Source of the DNA: Escherichia coli | GTDB taxonomy: Bacteria > Pseudomonadota > Gammaproteobacteria > Enterobacterales > Enterobacteriaceae | Assembly: GCF_051903065.1 (NCBI RefSeq) | Contig: NZ_CP178438.1 | Strand: one strand, 5' to 3' | DNA: 64,000 nucleotides | Part shown: positions 2,797 to 54,706 of the stretch, one piece after another | Position numbering within the stretch: the first letter of the stretch is position 1 | How the letters are laid out: every line of letters begins with the position of its first letter | Notes under the pieces: generated by a model | What the model saw: only the letters and a program-made list of their open reading frames with translations | Database searches by the model: none | Told to the model about the DNA's origin: nothing | Made by a program: the position numbers and the translations under genes

Positions 2797-4023
2797 CTAG
2801 TTACCTTCATTGATATAGTTAACACCTTTATCAATTGCCTCCAATATATAATCAATCATACCATACACACCCTCAGTAAATGGATGATTATTTAGGAAAG
2901 TAAACATGTTATTCCCTAAAGACACATTATACATTAAATACAAAAAAGGCACTAAATTTACTACATATAAACAAATAAGTAGGGCATATTTACTCCTACC
3001 TTTTCTCTCAAAAGCTTTTAGATAAGGTAAAATAAAGTAGGGATAAAAACCAAAAATAATCATACCCAATCTATTCGAAAGTGCTGGGAAAGGTAATAAT
3101 ATTAAGAATAGAAAACACTCCTTACAAAATAAAATCTTATTAAAATCATCACATTTACTTCTCTTCCCTATCATTATAATAAAGCATATATTTACGACTG
3201 TAATGATAATATAATTTAACGGCAAACGTGTGAATTTATCGTTCCCAGAAACTGAAGTGAATTTCGATAATAGCACAGAATAAATTGGCGTATTATAAAC
3301 CACAAAAAACACAACTAAAAGTCCAATAAGAATAGAAAAAACAATTTTTGCATATGAGTATTTTTTTGAACCAAAGATCATATAAACTGCATATATAAAA
3401 ACATTAACAACTGCAGACATGTGAAAAAAAACACTCAATAAAAAAAAGATATATTTTTTAAATGAACGCTCATTTATAGCATACAGAAAAACAACCACAG
3501 ATAAAACCTGTCGAAGAAAATATGATGTAACTTCTATAAATCCTAAGTTAAAAAAGAAAAGCGATAATAAAAAAAGTTTATATTTTTTTTCAACATCTTT
3601 AAGAATCTTGGATAAAAAAAAGACGATCAGAAAATAAGTAGAAAGTAAAAATACTTCATCATTGCCATCTGAAATATACCCAATAAATTTCATGATGGCT
3701 AAAAACATAAATTCCAGCCCATCACCAAATCTTGAATAGCCAAAAACATCAATTAAATTATAATTTAACTCATGGTAAACATGAAGATACTCTGCAATAT
3801 CTCCAAATGGTTTTAGTGTGGAAAAAAAAATAATAATAAACACCAATAGTGCATAAAAATAAAAATTACGCAATACTGGGTGTAACAATGGCGAGAGGGC
3901 ACCAATAAATATCAATACAACAAGAGGGTAAAAGAATGTTGCCAATAATAACAAAGGAATAAAATATACAACACAGTTATTATTTGACAATGAATTTTCA
4001 TTGCTGTTTTTATAAATATTCAT
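2797..4023 (-). CDS. wzy: O-antigen polymerase Wzy (polytopic membrane protein)
   Basis: 408-aa very hydrophobic, very AT-rich ORF between wzx and a glycosyltransferase; assignment by context and composition only. Confidence 0.55.
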   Translation of the reverse strand: MNIYKNSNENSLSNNNCVVYFIPLLLLATFFYPLVVLIFIGALSPLLHPVLRNFYFYALLVFIIIFFSTLKPFGDIAEYLHVYHELNYNLIDVFGYSRFGDGLEFMFLAIMKFIGYISDGNDEVFLLSTYFLIVFFLSKILKDVEKKYKLFLLSLFFFNLGFIEVTSYFLRQVLSVVVFLYAINERSFKKYIFFLLSVFFHMSAVVNVFIYAVYMIFGSKKYSYAKIVFSILIGLLVVFFVVYNTPIYSVLLSKFTSVSGNDKFTRLPLNYIIITVVNICFIIMIGKRSKCDDFNKILFCKECFLFLILLPFPALSNRLGMIIFGFYPYFILPYLKAFERKGRSKYALLICLYVVNLVPFLYLMYNVSLGNNMFTFLNNHPFTEGVYGMIDYILEAIDKGVNYINEGN

Positions 4024-4825
4024 ATCGGGAATATCCTTTTAGCAGAATAAATAATGCAGCTATTTTTTTAATTCTGCCGCATTTTTTTTTAAAAAGAAAT
4101 TTTTTCACCCAGAATATGAAGATATATAGTAACCCTAAATATCTACCACCACAGCGTACAAAAATAGCACTTCTATCAGATAGGGCATCTGTTTCATTAT
4201 AAATTTTTTTACCAGAACTTTCTATTGGATGCACAGTAATTGTGACAGGTATAAAAATAATATTATTTTTTGTTTTCATAAGATCCGTAACAAAAATCGG
4301 TTCTTCACCCGCTTTATATCTAGCCCCCAATCCGAAACACTCATCAAACCAAACATTACATTCCTGTATTTGATTCACATTAAGGCACATTTCTATTGAA
4401 GAAATGTTAAATGCTGACAATCTATTTAGCCTTTTCCTCATTAGCGGATATTTTTTCCTTAGTCTTCCGTCTTGCGTACAACTTTGAATTTGATAATGAT
4501 ACTTGCCTCTATCTTCGATTATTCTATCTTTTAGTTCATAAAGTCCATTAACAAGGTAAGCGACATCATCATCACTTATAATCATATAATCAACGCTTTT
4601 TTGAAATGCAGTAGCCAATAAAATGTTTCTGCTTTTACTTAACCCTTTACAGTATGTCGTTATTATTATTACATTGTTTTTCTTACAAATATCCCCATAT
4701 TGTTTTTGCTTATCAGTCACTTGATGTGAAATTATTATTAAAAATTCATCTGGTATATTTTTTATTTTTTCCCAAACCTGATTTATTCCATTATTTAATG
4801 TTGATATACCTATAGCTATTTTCAT
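4010..4825 (-). CDS. Glycosyltransferase, first gene of the O-antigen operon
   Basis: 271-aa ORF with DDD-containing GT-A-like N-terminal half; immediately downstream (in transcription sense) of the JUMPstart/ops element. Confidence 0.6.
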   Translation of the reverse strand: MKIAIGISTLNNGINQVWEKIKNIPDEFLIIISHQVTDKQKQYGDICKKNNVIIITTYCKGLSKSRNILLATAFQKSVDYMIISDDDVAYLVNGLYELKDRIIEDRGKYHYQIQSCTQDGRLRKKYPLMRKRLNRLSAFNISSIEMCLNVNQIQECNVWFDECFGLGARYKAGEEPIFVTDLMKTKNNIIFIPVTITVHPIESSGKKIYNETDALSDRSAIFVRCGGRYLGLLYIFIFWVKKFLFKKKCGRIKKIAALFILLKGYSRYEYL

Positions 4826-6292: not shown

Positions 6293-7288
6293 TTACTCAG
6301 AAACAAACGTTATGTCGTCTTTTTTGGCATGGACGAATTCATACTGCAGAGTTCGATCCAGACCTTGCGACAGCGTATACGGTGCCACAAAACCTGAAGA
6401 ATGCACTTTCGTTGCGTCAAACTGTGTTGTTGCGCAGAATTTTTTCACGCGCACTGAGCTGACAGCGTATTTTTTGCCCGTAATTTTGCTCAGGATATCA
6501 AAGCAATATCCACCCAGCATTCCTAGTGGGTAAGGCAAGTGCATAGAAGGGATCTTTTTGTTCAGGCTTTGTTCAACTTCAGCAACCAACTGGTTCATGT
6601 TCAAGTCTGGCTTATCAACGTAGTTATAAACCTCATAACCTGCGGCAACATTCTTCAGTTTGTACTTGATAAACTCAACAATGTTTCCAACATACGCCAT
6701 GGACTTATAGTTAGTCCCTGCCCCCACCATCATAAACTTACCGCCAGCGATCTGTTTCAGCAAGTTATAGACGTTACCGCGGTTGCGTTCACCGAAGATA
6801 ACGGTAGGACGGATGATGGTTAATGAACGTTCTGTTGGTGCTTTGTTATACCATTCACGCAGCACTTCCTCTGCCTGCCACTTACTTTTGCCGTAGTGGT
6901 TGAAAGGATCGTGTGGATGGTTTTCGTCAGGGTTGTGTTTGTTCAAACCATAAACAGCAACGGAACTGGTAAAGATGATATTTTTAACGCCTTTTTTTTC
7001 CATGGCCGCCAACACATTGCGGGTACCCTGAACGTTGACATCATAATAGAGAGAAGTAGGGCTGACGTCATCGCGGTGTTCCGCTGCAAGTAGTACAACA
7101 GTGTCAAAACCGGCTAACGCCTGGTCGAGTGCCTGTTGATCACGAACATCGCCAATCTGTGTGATTTCTGGATAAAAGTGGCTCTGCTGTTTGTCCAGGT
7201 TCTTGATATTAAAGTCAGCAATTGCCGTTTCAAGTAGTCGGGTTCCTACGAATCCGGAAGCTCCTATGAGCAAAACGTTATCGTTCAT
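6293..7288 (-). CDS. gne: NAD-dependent UDP-N-acetylglucosamine 4-epimerase (Gne-type)
   Basis: 331-aa short-chain dehydrogenase/epimerase (MNDNVLLIGASGFVGTRLLE..., YGKSK active-site motif); position between galF and wcaM as in strains with GalNAc-containing O-antigens. Confidence 0.8.
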   Translation of the reverse strand: MNDNVLLIGASGFVGTRLLETAIADFNIKNLDKQQSHFYPEITQIGDVRDQQALDQALAGFDTVVLLAAEHRDDVSPTSLYYDVNVQGTRNVLAAMEKKGVKNIIFTSSVAVYGLNKHNPDENHPHDPFNHYGKSKWQAEEVLREWYNKAPTERSLTIIRPTVIFGERNRGNVYNLLKQIAGGKFMMVGAGTNYKSMAYVGNIVEFIKYKLKNVAAGYEVYNYVDKPDLNMNQLVAEVEQSLNKKIPSMHLPYPLGMLGGYCFDILSKITGKKYAVSSVRVKKFCATTQFDATKVHSSGFVAPYTLSQGLDRTLQYEFVHAKKDDITFVSE

Positions 7289-46989: not shown

Positions 46990-47164
46990 AAGAAATCATT
47001 TCTTAGAGAATTATTGAGGTCCGGTATCATACCGACTGCAATAATGAAATAAGAGCAAACGAAGAAACTTTCAGAATTAGTCCCGGCGGCGCAGAAAATT
47101 TTGCTATTCGCCTCGCAAGAACGGAGAGCCGTCGATTGACACTAAGGGCGGAGTGACATAATTT

Positions 47165-47315
47165 CAGGAGTGAGGGTTAGGGAAAGGTTTCCCCCTCCCC
47201 CTGGTGTTCTTAGTAAGCCTGGAAGCTAATCACTAAGAGTATCACCAGTATGATGACGTGCTTCATCATAACCCTTTCCTTATTTAAGGCCCCTTCCTCG
47301 GGAGGGGCTTTCCCG
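47165..47315 (+). ncRNA. sibA: SibA antisense sRNA (antitoxin to ibsA); ends approximate
   Basis: ttgaca / cataat promoter-like elements around 47139-47163; antisense to ibsA; GC hairpin ccccttcctcgggaggggc followed by a T-rich run. Confidence 0.55.
47210..47269 (-). CDS. ibsA: Type I toxin IbsA (19 aa hydrophobic peptide)
   Basis: Minus-strand translation gives MMKHVIILVILLVISFQAY with an AAGGG Shine-Dalgarno-like sequence upstream. Confidence 0.8.
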   Translation of the reverse strand: MMKHVIILVILLVISFQAY

Positions 47316-47499
47316 TTTCAGCATCCCGCTGAAATCGTCGGCTTACCTCCTTTCGCCATGCATGCAGTCTATCGCTGACTTGCGGATAAAATAGTTTCCA
47401 GTGTGATTATTGCGTAACGTCTCGCAAAGAATATTTGCTGGCAGGATCGCAGACTGCAAAGCCTGCAGATTGACAATCTGACCGTGAAGGCATACTTTC

Positions 47500-47620
47500 A
47501 GGAGTGAGGGTTGAGCGGGGTTTCCCCCGCCCTGGTAGTCTTAGTAAGCTGGCCAGCTAATGACTAAGAGCACCACGATGATGAGTAGCTTCATCATGAC
47601 CCTTTTCTTATTAAAGGATG
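47500..47620 (+). ncRNA. sibB: SibB antisense sRNA, apparently lacking its native 3-prime hairpin
   Basis: ttgaca / catact promoter-like elements at about 47471-47497; homology with the sibA copy stops near 47618. Confidence 0.45.
47541..47597 (-). CDS. ibsB: Type I toxin IbsB-like (18 aa hydrophobic peptide)
   Basis: Minus-strand translation gives MMKLLIIVVLLVISWPAY; paralogous to ibsA. Confidence 0.75.
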   Translation of the reverse strand: MMKLLIIVVLLVISWPAY

Positions 47621-47961: not shown

Positions 47962-48324
47962 ATGTTAAAGCTATTTGCAAAGTACACCTCGATTGGTGTG
48001 CTGAACACACTTATACACTGGGTGGTTTTTGGTGTATGTATCTATGCCGCGCATACCAATCAGGCTCTGGCAAACTTCTCAGGTTTCGTTGTGGCTGTGA
48101 GCTTTAGCTTCTTCGCGAATGCAAAATTCACATTCAAAGCATCGACTACAACGATGCGCTACATGTTATATGTCGGGTTCATGGGAACACTGAGTGCTAC
48201 TGTTGGATGGGCTGCTGATAAGTGCTCGCTTCCTCCAATTATCACTCTTATCACCTTCTCCGCCATCAGCCTGGTGTGCGGTTTCGTCTATTCAAAGTTC
48301 ATTGTCTTTAGGGATGCGAAATGA
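47962..48324 (+). CDS. gtrA: Bactoprenol-linked glucose translocase GtrA
   Basis: 120-aa small 4-TM protein of the GtrA family; start codon of the next gene overlaps its stop. Confidence 0.85.
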
Positions 48325-49241
48325 AAATATCTCTGATTGTTCCTGTCTTCAATGAAGAAGATGCGATACCAATTTTCTATAAAACGGTACGTGAATTCGA
48401 AGAGTTGAAGCCTTATGACGTCGAAATTGTATTCATAAATGACGGAAGCAAAGACGCCACGGAATCAATTATTAACGTTCTGGCTGTTTCAGATCCGCTA
48501 GTTGTTCCGCTGTCATTTACACGAAACTTTGGTAAAGAACCAGCATTGTTTGCAGGGTTAGACCATGCAACGGGCGATGCTGTTATTCCTATTGATGTTG
48601 ACCTGCAAGACCCGATTGAGGTTATTCCTCATCTGATTGAAAAGTGGCAGGCAGGTGCCGATATGGTGCTGGCAAAACGTTCAGATCGTTCAACTGATGG
48701 AAGATTAAAACGGAAAACCGCTGAGTGGTTCTATAAGCTTCACAATAAAATAAGCAATCCAAAGATTGAAGAGAATGTCGGCGATTTCCGCCTGATGTCT
48801 CGAGAGGTGGTAGAAAATATCAAACTACTGCCAGAGCGTAACCTGTTTATGAAAGGCGTTTTATCTTGGGTTGGCGGTAAGACGGATGTTGTTGAATACA
48901 TCCGTGCTGAACGCGTTGCCGGAAGCACAAAATTCAATGGCTGGAAGCTATGGAACCTGGCGCTTGAGGGAATTACAAGTTTCTCGACCTTCCCCTTACG
49001 CGTGTGGACTTACATCGGCCTACTTGTTGCGGGACTCTCGTTCCTTTACGGGGTGTGGATGATTTTCGACACATTGGTGTTCGGTAATGCTGTCCGCGGA
49101 TATCCTTCTATTCTTGTATCTATTCTCTTTTTAGGTGGCATTCAGTTAATTGGTATTGGGGTGCTGGGAGAATACATCGGCAGAATTTACGTAGAAGTTA
49201 AAAATCGTCCTAGATATGTACTTAAAAAAATAAAAGGTTAG
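48321..49241 (+). CDS. gtrB: Bactoprenol glucosyltransferase GtrB (GT2)
   Basis: 306-aa ORF with GT2 N-terminus ([11 protein letters not shown]...FINDGSKD) and two C-terminal TM segments. Confidence 0.9.
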
Positions 49242-49246
49242 AGAAT

Positions 49247-50623
49247 ATGCGCATTTCAAAAAATGAAAAATACCTTTCATTGATTATGATAGCATTTTAC
49301 TTGCCATTTTTATTATCTGATTTACCTTTTAGGGACGATCTAAGCAGGACTTATTGGGGTTTTGTTGGGTTGTCTCAATTAGGTAGACCATTGGCAGACA
49401 TTGTTTATAGTTTGGTTGGATTTGGCTATGAGGGTGTTAACCTCAGCCCTATGCCTAAAATTATAGCGCTATTAATAATATTATCGTCTGCGATATTTTC
49501 ATACAGAACGCTATTCAACTCAATAGGAGCAACCGGGTTACTCTCTTTATCTATTTTCTTTGCAAATCCATTTATTATTCAAAATTTTGCATATCAGTAC
49601 GACTGTTTTCCAATGGCTTTATCTATTTTATTGGCGACATTATCTGTATTATATAGACCAAGATCAAGCTATTTTTATTTTCTTAGCGCATCATTTTTAT
49701 TAACTAGCGCAATATCACTTTATCAAGCATCTATATTTATTGCGGCATCTTTATATTTATGTAAGATCACTATTTATTTCGTTAACGATAGAAATCGCAG
49801 AGATGTTTTTATAGAATGCATGCTTACTCTTTTGTCTTCTTTTTTCTCTATTGCATGTTACATGGTGATTTTACTTTTTGTAGAAAATGGCGTGTCAAAA
49901 CGAGCTAGCATTACAGGGCCAAGTGGCGTTATTAGCAATATCGAGTTCCTTTTGGATAGGTTAAATAGCCTTTACCACTCGGTTTATATTTTTTTTATTA
50001 TTTTGTCATTAGTATTAATATTCTCTCTCTTGAGGATTTTTATCCTAAAAAGATATATCAATTTATGCGTGATATTACTAATACTTGTTGCGCTGCTAGT
50101 CTCTTCCCTACTCCCATCTGTCATCCTTAAGGAAGGGTTCGCCGGACCAAGAGTTTTAATGTCTATTTGTTCGGTATTTATATTTATATCTATCATTGCA
50201 ACCGGAAAAGAAAAATACGTATACGCCATGGTGTTATCTGTTTTAATGATGCATTCCATGTCTATTTCATACGCATTTTCAGGTGACATTAAGGCACAAT
50301 ACGATAGATACTCGATGATATCATCTCTTGTTTATAAAGATATTGATAATTACGTGTCGTCAAATACAGCAAAAATATACATTTCTTGCAAATCAACCCC
50401 ATCACAAAGAGAGTACGTTTTCTATAAATTCAACAATCACATAGCATGGCTCAACCCAGAAGAGGCTTGGGCTATCAGGTTTTTCATAAGAAATAATGGC
50501 GAGAGCAGGGTGGTGCACTCATGGGATGAATGCTTTGATATAAATGGAGGTAAGATCGTTAAAGAAAATGCATTTTATAAAATGGTTGAAAATAAAAATT
50601 CTTACTATTTCATAATGAAATAA
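49247..50623 (+). CDS. Serotype-specific O-antigen glucosyltransferase (GtrC-type polytopic membrane protein)
   Basis: 458-aa very AT-rich, highly hydrophobic ORF immediately after gtrAB; family call is by context and composition. Confidence 0.6.
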   Translation: MRISKNEKYLSLIMIAFYLPFLLSDLPFRDDLSRTYWGFVGLSQLGRPLADIVYSLVGFGYEGVNLSPMPKIIALLIILSSAIFSYRTLFNSIGATGLLSLSIFFANPFIIQNFAYQYDCFPMALSILLATLSVLYRPRSSYFYFLSASFLLTSAISLYQASIFIAASLYLCKITIYFVNDRNRRDVFIECMLTLLSSFFSIACYMVILLFVENGVSKRASITGPSGVISNIEFLLDRLNSLYHSVYIFFIILSLVLIFSLLRIFILKRYINLCVILLILVALLVSSLLPSVILKEGFAGPRVLMSICSVFIFISIIATGKEKYVYAMVLSVLMMHSMSISYAFSGDIKAQYDRYSMISSLVYKDIDNYVSSNTAKIYISCKSTPSQREYVFYKFNNHIAWLNPEEAWAIRFFIRNNGESRVVHSWDECFDINGGKIVKENAFYKMVENKNSYYFIMK

Positions 50624-50629
50624 ATATAG

Positions 50630-50663
50630 GCGGGGGGGGGGGTAACAATCCCCCGTCTTTTTT
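50630..50663 (+). terminator. Rho-independent terminator after the gtr operon
   Basis: G-run (11 G) pairing with ccccc across a taacaat loop, followed by tctttttt, 7 bp after the gtrC stop. Confidence 0.5.
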
Positions 50664-50849: not shown

Positions 50850-53381
50850 CTATATAACGGATAGCGTTCTTATGTCATTGCTAGCTGGTGATGCCATAAC
50901 TATCTGTGTTACGTTAGCGCCAGACACCGTATACGTCAGAATTACGTTACCAACGGCTCCTATATTAAAGTTTTGTTTAGCTCCTGAGGTACCTATAGCT
51001 CTGGCATTCGTTAAAGTATACGTGCTTCCCGCAGTGAATCCTGTAGCAATTACAAATTGTTGACCAACTTTAAAAGGAACTGTCATTGTTGCGGATGTTG
51101 ACTCGACAGTAGCAAACGGCAGGCCAGGCTGTTTAACCCCCGTCACATCCCAGAACTCACAGTTACGCACCAATGCTCGACCAATTAAATCGCGAGTTAC
51201 AGGGAATGTTGTCTGGTCCTGTGATAAGAATGCTCCAACAATTTGCACGTTATCGAGCGTAATATCGTGTACTGTGGCCCCATCTATAGGACTTAACGTT
51301 GGTGATGCACTCCATAATTTACCACCCTTCATTTTGATACTTACAGGCCCGTTAGGGTCTGTCCCTCTAAAAGCGCGAATACTCTCAAATTTGCAATCTG
51401 TAAATTCATAGCTGCCGCGTTGGTTAGTTTCGAACAATGTATACGCCTCACCTGACACTCCGTGTCTTACATCACTGGCAACAACGCGCGGATTATGGCG
51501 GAATGATGCAGACGTGACAGAGAAAAATGGCGCGCAGACATCGTTAATAAGAATGTCTGTTGTATAACGCCCTGTAACAGCGCTCTCAGAGTCACTCATA
51601 TCCGAATATAGCGCTTTGAAGCGGGAGAAGTCTATGTTTAGACCTATTCCTGCACTTTTTGGTAATTGTCCAAAATCAAGCCCGTCAATAACAATTTTCT
51701 TAGGGAAATAAAGGGTGTTATCTCGAGCTACAGTTATTAATGTACCCGGATAAGTCAAGACGAAACCTGGATACATTTTAACATCTTTCAAGGTAACATT
51801 ATTGAATAACGTGGGGCTTATAGGCGACCCGCTACTAGGCCCTTGCCCAGCAGTAACAGCTGCGTTTATGATACCATTTCCGGGTGCGCCGCTGCGCAGG
51901 CCAGTTAACTTAATATTCTCCATGTATAAATCACCATCGAAGCCCCCCCCCAGCGTCAGAGCGAGTCGAAATAATATTACCAGGCTTATATGGTGAAGCA
52001 TTAAATATTGAATTGGTTACATACAAATCCCCGATACCAGAAGCGACGACACCATAAGTCCCAATATTACAGTCATTTATCTTTAAGTAGTTTTGGAAAG
52101 GTCTGTGGAAATCAATTCGACTAAGATCGCATCTTTCAAACCTTATATTGGCGCAATTATTGCTGCCTGTTGCCCCCCAGCCTTTACCATTTGCCGTTGC
52201 GTTTTTGATAGTGACATCCATAGAGTTAGATAGGGTTAAGGCGTATGCGTAGCTATCAACACCATCTATTAAGGCGTTTGCTATGGCTGGCGTGTATAAA
52301 CCATCAACTGTAACATCATAGCTTTCGTTAATTTCTATCCTGATATCATTAAAGTTTTGCGTTATCGGTCTGTTAATAAATGTCGTATTAACCAAGCGAA
52401 CTCGTGATGCTTGATTAATATAAATAATTCGATAATTCTTTGTAAGACTTTCGTCTATAGTCAATCCCTTAAGGTCTGCACATCTTTGCGTATTTTAAGT
52501 GCTTTAATTGATGTTGCGTTAGTTCCTAGGGCGTACTTAAGCGGGTTTTCAATGTATCCACGGTTATATACCCTGTTGAAATCTACGCGAGTTTGATTAA
52601 CGCCATCGAAAATAAACATAGGTTGAGATGTCGATAACTGAATGAAGCAACCGTCAAGGTCGGTATTAGAAGCCAAACCATCAAGATAGTTGCTACCTAT
52701 GTCGCGAGAGCCACTGGTGGACGTATTAACTCCATTAACTGGAGCCGAACCAGAACCGTATGTAACAGGGGCGACAGGCTGGCTAATAACAATTTGCCCT
52801 TTCCATGTAGCCGATGGTTTAAGCACACACCCGGTTAAATCCACATTTAAACTTTTAATATCAAGATAAGTATCACCATCTAGTAGAAAAGTTCCGTCAG
52901 ATTGCCTAACGTCTAAATTATTTGAATAAGCATAGTTCAGTGCCTTAGCTATGGCGGGAGCGTCATTTGTTACTCCATCACCAATAGCGCCAAACTCCTT
53001 CAACGTTACCCAGTATTTTACTTTCTCCAAGCTCTTTTGATATTGATCTGGGTCGTACTTCAGCACATTAGGAAAATAGAACTGCTGCGCACCATATGCA
53101 TCATAAACAGCCATAGAGTGGCCTTGCACAGTTACGAACTTGGCAATCTGTCCGTTATATACCGGATATCCAGCAGCGTTAATGATGATTGGTTGTGAAA
53201 CAGGAACGTGAGAACCATCCTCATTCTCCACATAAATCTGAATCTGGTTTTCAGGATTTACCGGGTCAGTGTCAATTTTTCCTATATAAATTTTGCCATT
53301 GGCAACCGCTTTAAAAGAACGTGCCATAGTGAAGAGTTGCGAAGGCATGCTTACCACAACATTTGCGGTGATATCTGTCAT
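50850..53381 (-). pseudogene. P22-like phage tailspike gene disrupted by at least two frameshifts
   Basis: Three consecutive minus-strand ORFs (52461-53381, 51931-52464, 50850-52001). The first begins [43 protein letters not shown], recognised from memory as the P22 gp9 head-binding domain; the others are beta-helix-like. One frame junction sits on a 9-nt homopolymer. Confidence 0.75.
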
Positions 53382-53505: not shown

Positions 53506-54706
53506 TGTATTAGCTCAGACCTGATCTGACAGTTACCGGTTATTTATACAGGTATCTGTCAGATTACATCCGGCTTAAATTTTTCTCGGCCCAGATGCGC
53601 TTTCCATCAAGTAACGTTTCCATTGGCGTCCGCCCATTGCGCATTTTTCCCTGATGGGTTCGTTCATTATTATAGTGAGCCAGCCACTCATCAAGATCCG
53701 ATTGCAATGTATCGAGAGCTCCATACAACTTTTTACGGAACGTCACCTGATAAAATTCGTTCAGTATCGTCTTATGGAACCGCTCGCAGATGCCATTTGT
53801 CTGCGGTGACATCGCTTTAGTTTTCGTGTGGTCTATATCATTTATTGCCAGATATAGCTGGTAGTCATGCTGTTCCACCTTACCGCAGTACTCTGTTCCT
53901 CTGTCGGTCAGTATTCTCAGCATTGGCAGGTTTTGCGATTCGTAAAATGGCAACACACGATCATTCAGCAGGTCAGCAGCCGTGATCGGTGTTTTGGTTA
54001 CATACAGTTTACAGTGTGCGACCTTCGAGTAGGTGTCAACGAACGTTTGCTGATAAATGCGTCCGACTCCTTTCAGATTACCCACGTAGAACGTATCCTG
54101 AGAGCCCAGATAACCGGGATGTGCGGTTTCGATTTCACCACACGCTTCGTCATCGCTGGCTTTACGCTCCAGAACGACTATCTGTGCTTCTGTCAGCTCG
54201 ATACCGTCACGGGCTACTTTTTCCTCCAGTGCTTTCAGCCGCTTTTTGAAGTTCTCAAGGTTATGCCGCAGCCAGACAGAACGTACACCCCTTCCTGAGA
54301 TGAAGACACCTTGCTTACGTAGCTCATTGCTGGTCCGGTGCTGGCCATGCGCAGGGTACGCGATGGCATAATCAACAACGGCCCGCTCAGTTGCATCATC
54401 GGTACGATTTTTTAGATTGGGCGTTCGTCGAGTGCGGTTAATCAGTGCATCCACCCCACCTTCATCAGCCAGTTCGCGATAACGGTAAAACGTATCACGC
54501 GAGACGCCCATGATTTTGCAGGCCTTCGAAACATTGCGGAGTTCTTCAGCCAGATTGAGCAAACCGGCTTTGTGTTTGATGACGGGATTGTTAGTATGAA
54601 GCATGAGAGTTACCTCGTGTTTTGTATAAGGATTCGACACCCATATCAAAACCGGTAACTCTCAACCTTTCAAGGCTCAGTGTCAGATCAAGTCGCGACT
54701 AATACA
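53506..54706 (-). mobile_element. IS481-like insertion sequence (about 1.2 kb) with imperfect terminal inverted repeats
   Basis: Ends tgtattagctcagacctgatctgacagttaccggtt (53506-53541) and aaccggtaact...gtcagatcaagtcgcgactaataca (54650-54706) are inverted repeats with a 20-bp insertion in the right copy; encloses one transposase gene. Confidence 0.6.
53564..54604 (-). CDS. DDE transposase (integrase-core/rve domain with N-terminal HTH), IS481-family-like
   Basis: Track ORF is 361 aa from a TTG; likely ATG start at 54604 (MLHTNNPVIKHK..., 346 aa); HTH-like N-terminus and integrase-core-like central region. Confidence 0.75.
   Translation of the reverse strand: MLHTNNPVIKHKAGLLNLAEELRNVSKACKIMGVSRDTFYRYRELADEGGVDALINRTRRTPNLKNRTDDATERAVVDYAIAYPAHGQHRTSNELRKQGVFISGRGVRSVWLRHNLENFKKRLKALEEKVARDGIELTEAQIVVLERKASDDEACGEIETAHPGYLGSQDTFYVGNLKGVGRIYQQTFVDTYSKVAHCKLYVTKTPITAADLLNDRVLPFYESQNLPMLRILTDRGTEYCGKVEQHDYQLYLAINDIDHTKTKAMSPQTNGICERFHKTILNEFYQVTFRKKLYGALDTLQSDLDEWLAHYNNERTHQGKMRNGRTPMETLLDGKRIWAEKNLSRM

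Follow-up and report, generated by a model that had tools for sequence, protein, structure and literature searches.

A nine-guanine run in an Escherichia coli prophage tailspike is probably a slippage hotspot in an already dead gene

Introduction

P22-like phages carry tailspikes such as P22 gp9, Sf6 gp14 and HK620 gp9, and E. coli chromosomes retain cryptic remnants of gtrABC serotype-converting prophages, for example yfdGHI beside intS at a tRNA-Arg gene. Slipped-strand contingency loci are known from poly-G tracts in surface genes of Neisseria, Campylobacter and Haemophilus. Among phages, poly-G tracts in the receptor-binding proteins of Campylobacter phages are attributed to Sorensen et al. 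(2021, Cell Rep 35:109214) in PMC10877375, and a recent preprint claims such loci for T2 and T4 (bioRxiv 10.1101/2025.10.21.683753). The indel rate of E. coli rises with homopolymer length, and an 8-bp G·C run, the one in leuP/Q/V/T, is a leading hotspot in mutation-accumulation lines, these data coming from mismatch-repair-deficient laboratory lines (PMC8510543). Prokaryotic genomes generally show a deficit of poly-G and poly-C runs (PMC2831843). The beta-helix reference structure used below, 8X8M, is the Klebsiella phage K64-ORF41 capsule depolymerase (PMC11652154).

Here we analysed a 64,000-nt stretch of E. coli DNA (the window) in which a prophage tailspike is divided into three open reading frames (ORFs), the second and third of them parting at a run of nine G on the coding strand, and compared this run with the systems above.

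Results

The break between ORF2 and ORF3 falls within a run of nine G

The plus strand at 51940-51959 reads aagCCCCCCCCCagcgtcag, in which C9 fills exactly 51943-51951, corresponding to G9 on the coding (minus) strand. ORF2 and ORF3 overlap across this run and encode Gly-Gly-Gly there in both frames, ORF2 ending in ...SDAGGGLRW* and ORF3 reading ...LTLGGGFDGDLYMENIK... over the same bases. When the intact 843-aa tailspike of strain BL12 was compared with the window by tblastn, residues 1-305 aligned in frame 1, residues 304-479 in frame 3 and residues 478-843 again in frame 1, which places the second frame change within the run; consistently, DNA alignment with the intact BL12 gene showed one extra base at the G-run, making G9 a +1, out-of-frame allele. 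A natural G8 allele, in strain ECNB21-M121, has the fused ORF expected from this, 537 aa long, which reads ...SDAGGGFDGDLYMENIK... across the site. The earlier note on this DNA had located C9 at the frame break, had read Gly-Gly-Gly in both overlapping frames and had predicted an in-frame fusion upon removal of one base; the sequence, the tblastn frames, the DNA alignment and the ORF translations bear out the first two statements, and the G8 strain provides the third in nature. Its label of tailspike was also right, as detailed below, the setting being a prophage stump.

The run is thus a simple-sequence repeat inside the tailspike frame, as in phase-variable genes governed by such repeats. 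Dinucleotide-preserving shuffles of the window gave an expectation of 0.32 C9/G9 matches per 64 kb, so that a lone run of this length is unremarkable. The window holds two G/C runs of at least nine, G9 at 51943-51951 and G11 at 50632-50642, 1.3 kb apart in an island of 40% GC, and the 4 matches observed were equalled in 0 of 100 shuffles.

The tailspike is split by two frameshifts, one of them fixed

The whole tailspike runs convergently to the gtr operon and takes up 50850-53381 of the minus strand. ORF1 (306 aa, 52461..53381) contains, as P22-like tailspikes do, an N-terminal head-binding domain (PF09008, aa 1-113, E 1.9e-67), followed by the first beta-helix coils, and matches the Sf6 and P22 tailspike chains. 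ORF2 (177 aa, 51931..52464) corresponds to the mid-part of the beta-helix depolymerase domain, aa 304-479 of the intact homologue, and stops four codons past the run. ORF3 is a 383-aa open frame (50850..52001) whose homology to aa 478-843 begins at the run, near 51950. The beta-helix depolymerase fold is indicated by matches to 8x8m_A, at E 1e-40 for the BL12 homologue and E 4.5e-21 for the fused ORF2-3; since Pfam gave no family match for the fused 537-aa product, the identity of this product rests on the PDB match together with the full-length homologues. Instead of the uninterrupted ORF in a phage tail or late module expected of a P22-like tailspike, we found three ORFs and two frameshifts.

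Relative to the BL12 homologue, tblastn and DNA alignment agreed on a -1 frameshift at 52472/52473 in addition to the +1 in the G-run. This upstream lesion, on which the earlier note was silent, is a 1-nt deletion on the minus strand (52472..52473; GCAGACC-TTAAGG, where the intact BL12 gene has GCAAACTATTAAAGG) that lies about 520 nt from the G-run, outside any homopolymer, and separates ORF1 from ORF2. It was present in 35 of 35 related loci, and the shortened 306-aa ORF1 product was found on 175 contigs by exact-sequence look-up in a collection of 15 billion proteins. The deletion is the primary inactivating lesion and severs the beta-helix at about residue 305. The +1 in the run offsets the -1 deletion, so that ORF1 and ORF3 share one frame, and the G9 gene has the length of the intact homologue, 2532 nt. 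We considered this compensation as a rescue of the gene and rejected it, since ORF1 meets a stop four codons past the deletion.

The best product that the in-frame alleles could give is a 537-aa fragment without residues 1 to ~305, which comprise the head-binding domain and the initial coils of the beta-helix (about 190 residues). No repeat length therefore encodes a complete functional protein, and the in-frame G8 and G11 alleles make no tailspike, because the upstream deletion is fixed in all 35 loci. The stop of ORF1 overlaps the TTG that opens ORF2 (TTGA), with a Shine-Dalgarno-like AAGGG just 1 nt upstream of this TTG. A promoter scan of 50.5-53.7 kb returned 8 promoter-like sites against 9.4 expected from shuffles and, with no excess over shuffles, lends no support to an internal promoter for ORF2 or ORF3.

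The remnant lies in a prophage stump beside an intact gtr operon

The flanks of the locus are E. coli chromosome, with yegI, pphC, yegL and two SIB/ibs toxin-antitoxin loci (47136-47284 and 47470-47612) before the island and mdtABC beyond it. The island of about 6.7 kb between the sib/ibs loci and mdtA (window 47.9-54.6 kb) is a prophage stump. Its intact cargo is the plus-strand O-antigen glucosylation operon (47962..50623), composed of gtrA (47962-48324), gtrB (48321-49241) and a gtrC-like gene for a GtrII-family glucosyltransferase (49247-50623). Directly upstream of the tailspike remnant, an IS481-family transposase gene (53564..54649, minus strand) stands in place of the rest of the P22-like prophage. 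Annotation of the neighbourhood showed no other phage structural gene in the island, which holds only gtrABC, the tailspike and the transposase.

Two other homopolymers of the island were also variable in length. One is the G11 run on the plus strand (50632..50642), which forms the 5' arm of a terminator-like hairpin (50637-50654, then a T-run) 3' of gtrC and measures 9, 10, 11, 12, 18 or 19 in related loci; short-read contigs often stop at this run, and one stops in a poly-G artefact. The other, a T8 within gtrC (49989-49996), is a third slippage site: on each of two haplotypes it has independently become one base shorter, and gtrC is split in those strains.

Run length differs among near-identical genomes and is inherited

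Six complete RefSeq E. coli genomes carry the locus at ≥99.8% identity. The run is G8 in ECNB21-M121, in which ORF2 and ORF3 are fused and annotated as a single 537-aa protein, G9 with a broken frame in 23CRST027 and 23CRST031, and G10, again with a broken frame, in the Swiss calf and farm isolates 33F4, 32F4 and 33E. A further 31 loci were taken from draft and Logan assemblies, 35 related loci in all plus the window. Comparison of tract length in related genomes, a check proposed in the earlier note, thus yielded G8, G9, G10, G11 or G7-T across the 35 related E. coli loci; with the window included, the lengths read from DNA were G7T in 2, G8 in 8, G9 in 12 (the window among them), G10 in 9 and G11 in 6.

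Exact-sequence look-ups of the products in the 15-billion-protein collection gave 62 contigs (NCBI, ENA and Logan) for the G9-type ORF2 (177 aa), 42 + 6 for the G10-type ORF2 (186 aa), 7 + 30 for the G8 fusion (537 aa), 11 for the in-frame G11 form (DAGGGGFDG) and 6 + 6 for the interrupted, in-frame G7-T form (DAGGVFDG, GGGGGGGTC). In-frame alleles thus account for about one-third of contigs, which is the neutral expectation, these counts not being phylogenetically independent. Ten predicted allele products (G6, pure G7, G12, G11 on the Y haplotype, G8 on the D haplotype and G8 on the window's haplotype, several of them with each of the two candidate starts) were found 0 times in the same exact look-up, which bounds the observed length range, although alleles with other start-codon assignments may have been missed.

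When the window and three genomes, four lineages in all, were aligned over 14.6 kb, internal indels occurred only at the two G/C runs. G8 (L028), G9 (L010-L013) and G10 (L021-L026) all occurred on one and the same 5.5-kb SNP haplotype, and the "D" haplotype, defined by G at 51990, carried G9 (L014), G10 (L003, L006, L007) and G11 (L015-L020). Several lengths on each of two haplotypes imply that a single site changed length independently at least 4-5 times, compared with about 19 SNPs over 5.5 kb, for an estimated per-site rate roughly 1000 times higher. Length variation is therefore recurrent among near-identical genomes, as in phase-variable genes with simple-sequence repeats. Moreover, clonal sets shared a single length: three Swiss isolates had G10, six assemblies G11, and seven assemblies of the window's sub-lineage G9.

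This reproducibility of the length call across assemblies of the same lineage bears on the proposal that the true length is G8 (or G10) and that the ORF2/ORF3 break is a homopolymer sequencing or assembly error, an error that the earlier note had also raised. Homopolymers are a classic error site in long-read assemblies, the lengths of this very run in related complete genomes are just one base apart, and the longer neighbouring run at 50632-50642 upsets short-read assemblies. Nevertheless, G9 was read in seven independent assemblies of the window's sub-haplotype (G at 51473, Asp177 in ORF3), short-read ones included (the window, 23CRST027, 23CRST031, GCA_037286885.1, SRR24260334, ERR10321876 and GCA_025287215.1), the 62 contigs with the G9 product came from NCBI, ENA and Logan, and the G8-fused protein of the window's haplotype was missing from the 15-billion-protein collection. 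We thus consider an error improbable: the G9 of the window is an inherited allele and not an assembly slip, and the run is a real, inherited length polymorphism.

Intact relatives lack the run and keep an aromatic residue in its place

Among intact relatives, the 843-aa tailspikes of P22-like E. coli prophages come nearest, with 83-85% identity to the ORF2-3 product. In BL12 (84% nucleotide identity), the gene lies within a complete tail and ejection-protein module (gp10/needle/ejection proteins), beside gtrABC, intS and a tRNA-Arg gene, at the chromosomal site of the yfdGHI remnant. At the position of the run, 39 of 39 relatives, which share 47-86% identity and of which many are partial and about 19 complete at 843 aa, read DAGG[Y/F/W]FDG[D/N]LY, and the solved K64-ORF41 depolymerase 8X8M reads GDFGGFHDG (chain GDFGGFHDGGLY). 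The G-run occurred in 0 of these 39 relatives. In place of their aromatic residue, the G7T allele of the remnant encodes Val and the G8 allele Gly; in the DNA, the BL12 and DAM codons GGC/GGT GGT TAC correspond to GGG GGG GTC and GGG GGG GGC in the remnant alleles. Loss of this residue is as expected once constraint is gone.

Among 5.8 billion proteins there was no intact version above ~85% identity. The run with its flanks (G7 plus N0-8) had 0 matches in IMG/VR viral contigs and 0 in JGI metagenome contigs, and in a megablast search of phage genomes the match was confined to the N-terminal 400 nt, which encode the head-binding domain, the receptor-binding part being in no phage record. SNPs of the tailspike among 32 loci comprised 10 nonsynonymous and 4 synonymous changes, a ratio near neutral that, in a small sample of 14 sites, is weak evidence. 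In two loci of one lineage (L008, L009), an additional +1 frameshift lay in a run of G6 (C6 on the plus strand, 52173-52178); in most lineages, ORF2 and ORF3 had no lesion besides the run, and decay is not far advanced.

Discussion

We estimate at roughly 0.8 the probability that this site is a replication-slippage hotspot in an already dead prophage tailspike, in other words ordinary pseudogene decay and not a working switch. Under this reading, the 1-nt deletion near 52472/52473 would have inactivated the tailspike by cutting the beta-helix at about residue 305. With constraint lost, the Gly-Gly-aromatic codons GGC GGT TAC would have passed by substitution through GGG GGG GTC to GGG GGG GGC, thereby creating a G8 run. 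A run of such length would then slip in replication, producing lineages with G8, G9, G10 or G11, and the window would carry a G9 (+1) allele inherited in its sub-lineage. The deletion probably came first and the run later, an order drawn from the distribution of alleles and not from a rooted phylogeny; slippage is the likely mechanism of the length changes, which presumably have no phenotype. Thus, of the earlier suggestion of a slipped-strand, potentially phase-variable site, the length slippage is supported, with lengths of 8-11 on two SNP backgrounds, and functional phase variation is not, given the deletion fixed in 35 of 35 loci and the replaced aromatic residue.

A functional contingency locus would use the run length to toggle a 537-aa C-terminal depolymerase fragment, or a two-piece tailspike produced by coupled translation of ORF1 and ORF2-3. 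The locus does share several traits with such switches, since a long run inside a coding frame is multi-allelic in nature, with in-frame (G8, G11) and out-of-frame (G9, G10) lengths, ORF2-3 is free of other lesions in most lineages, and the ORF1 stop overlaps the ORF2 start; precedents also exist in the poly-G switches of Campylobacter phage receptor-binding genes, as far as these are presented in PMC10877375, and in the contingency loci reported in T2 and T4 (bioRxiv 10.1101/2025.10.21.683753). Against this, the beta-helix is split near residue 305 in every locus, the island offers no virion for the protein to join, and the run, which none of the 39 relatives has, destroys the aromatic residue that all of them and 8X8M share. 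Moreover, the near-neutral 10:4 ratio (weak evidence at 14 sites), the neutral share of in-frame alleles, the stability of length within clonal sets and the spacing of only 1 nt between AAGGG and TTG all speak against a switch, which we regard as very improbable.

A more elaborate version would be a domesticated two-piece tailspike, in which ORF1 and ORF2-3, joined by coupled translation at TTGA, would be supplied in trans to a P22-like phage, co-resident or superinfecting, or would act on the host O-antigen, the G-run serving as a heritable switch that would turn the receptor-binding half on (G8, G11) or off (G9, G10). Although the TTGA overlap makes a two-piece protein formally conceivable in G8 or G11 strains, we give this scenario barely any credence. 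Most documented cases of transcriptional slippage in E. coli involve A/T runs, and programmed recoding, in which RNA-polymerase or ribosomal slippage on G9 would restore the frame in some products, is likewise hardly credible: long homopolymers can support transcriptional slippage and a -1 correction would suffice to fuse ORF2 and ORF3, but such slippery sites are conserved in functional homologues, whereas here all 39 relatives have GG plus an aromatic residue, run length is not conserved, and the corrected product would still be without everything upstream of the first frameshift.

A slippage hotspot in a dead tailspike has practical consequences. Annotators should keep the ORF2/ORF3 split as a real allele and not polish it away, and the three ORFs are best treated as one tailspike pseudogene. 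The locus offers a clean natural example, from wild E. coli, of a homopolymer that would have arisen in a pseudogene after loss of constraint and then become hypermutable, its four length alleles being spread over two SNP backgrounds, and together with the neighbouring G9-19 run it is a possible fast-evolving marker for fine-scale typing of the lineage. It also cautions that a frame-breaking homopolymer alone is insufficient for calling phase variation. The tailspike G-run reveals no new mechanism.

Compared with known systems, the window's gene resembles P22-like tailspikes and beta-helix depolymerases in its PF09008 head-binding domain and in a beta-helix matching 8X8M, and differs from them in that two frameshifts divide it into three ORFs and the rest of its phage is missing. 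Like the cryptic gtrABC remnants of E. coli, it keeps gtrA-gtrB-gtrC beside decaying phage late genes, with just the cargo genes intact; unlike the yfdGHI remnant, it sits between sibB/ibs and mdtA, has no integrase or tRNA and is truncated by an IS481-family element. The likeness to slipped-strand contingency loci lies in a G/C run of at least 8 within a reading frame, whose length differs among close relatives and shifts the downstream frame in and out, and the likeness to the Campylobacter phage poly-G loci in the placement of this run in a phage receptor-binding gene. In contrast to contingency loci, no length here yields a complete protein, the run is absent from relatives and replaces a conserved residue, a small sample of SNPs gives no sign of purifying selection, and lengths look stable in clones. 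The site thus probably shares the mutational mechanism of contingency loci without their regulatory function. With the hotspots of mutation-accumulation lines it has in common the host species, a G·C run of at least 8 and ±1 indels far above the genome average; the difference is that here natural isolates, and not laboratory lines, show the variation, at a neutral site at which every length can persist. The closest description is therefore a homopolymer indel hotspot in a prophage pseudogene.

Additional frameshifts in the tailspike remnant

Tailspike ORF1 and ORF2 are separated by a 1-nt deletion that lies outside any homopolymer (52472-52473), the stop of ORF1 overlapping the TTG start of ORF2 in the motif TTGA. 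This deletion was fixed among the related loci (35 of 35), and it is the primary inactivating lesion of the tailspike. In the middle segment of the remnant, a C6 run (52173-52178; G6 on the coding strand) had gained one base in two of the E. coli loci compared with the window, L008 and L009, resulting in an additional tailspike frameshift in that lineage.

Homopolymers within and downstream of gtrC

Within gtrC (49247-50623), a T8 run (49989-49996) had lost one T in two further loci, L018 and L031, splitting the gene into two ORFs of 154 and 254 amino acids; the SNP haplotypes of these two loci differ. At the same site, locus L006 carried a 9-nt in-frame deletion. Since the base loss occurred on separate haplotypes, the O-antigen glucosyltransferase has been inactivated independently in some strains.

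Downstream of the gtrC stop, with a spacing of 9 nt, we observed a second run, a plus-strand G11 homopolymer (50632-50642) longer than the C9 run at 51943-51951. In a terminator-like hairpin (50637-50654; GGGGG-taacaat-CCCCC) this run makes up the 5' arm, and a T-run reaching about 50663 follows the hairpin on its 3' side. The G run measured 9, 10, 11, 12, 18 or 19 bases among the related loci, its short-read lengths being less trustworthy because many short-read contigs end at this run, one of them with a poly-G artefact.

Separately, the opening 7 kb of the window contained a cluster of A/T homopolymers of 8-9 bases (170-177, 3424-4090 and 6992-6999), which probably falls within the AT-rich end of the upstream polysaccharide gene clusters.

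Boundaries of the gtr/tailspike island

Two SIB antitoxin RNAs (47136-47284 and 47470-47612; Rfam RF00113, 149 and 133 bits, respectively) were identified, each with an ibs toxin ORF opposite it on the other strand. The second SIB locus and mdtA bound the gtr/tailspike island, and neither an integrase nor a tRNA was found at this site. An IS481-family transposase (53564-54649) sits immediately upstream of the tailspike remnant, adjoining mdtA, and probably marks the point at which the rest of the P22-like prophage was lost. Draft contigs were frequently broken at this transposase, which suggests that it is present in multiple genomic copies.

Related tailspike remnants at another site

Remnants of the same tailspike family, with 82% and 93% identity, were present in other E. 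coli, namely in strain DAM (L033, NZ_CM129523.1; 7084-9060) and at locus L034 (6001-6540), respectively. Both lie at another site, the sbcB-dacD interval, flanked by IS1 or IS3 elements, and their truncations differ. These differently truncated copies at a separate site indicate that this tailspike type has decayed more than once in E. coli.
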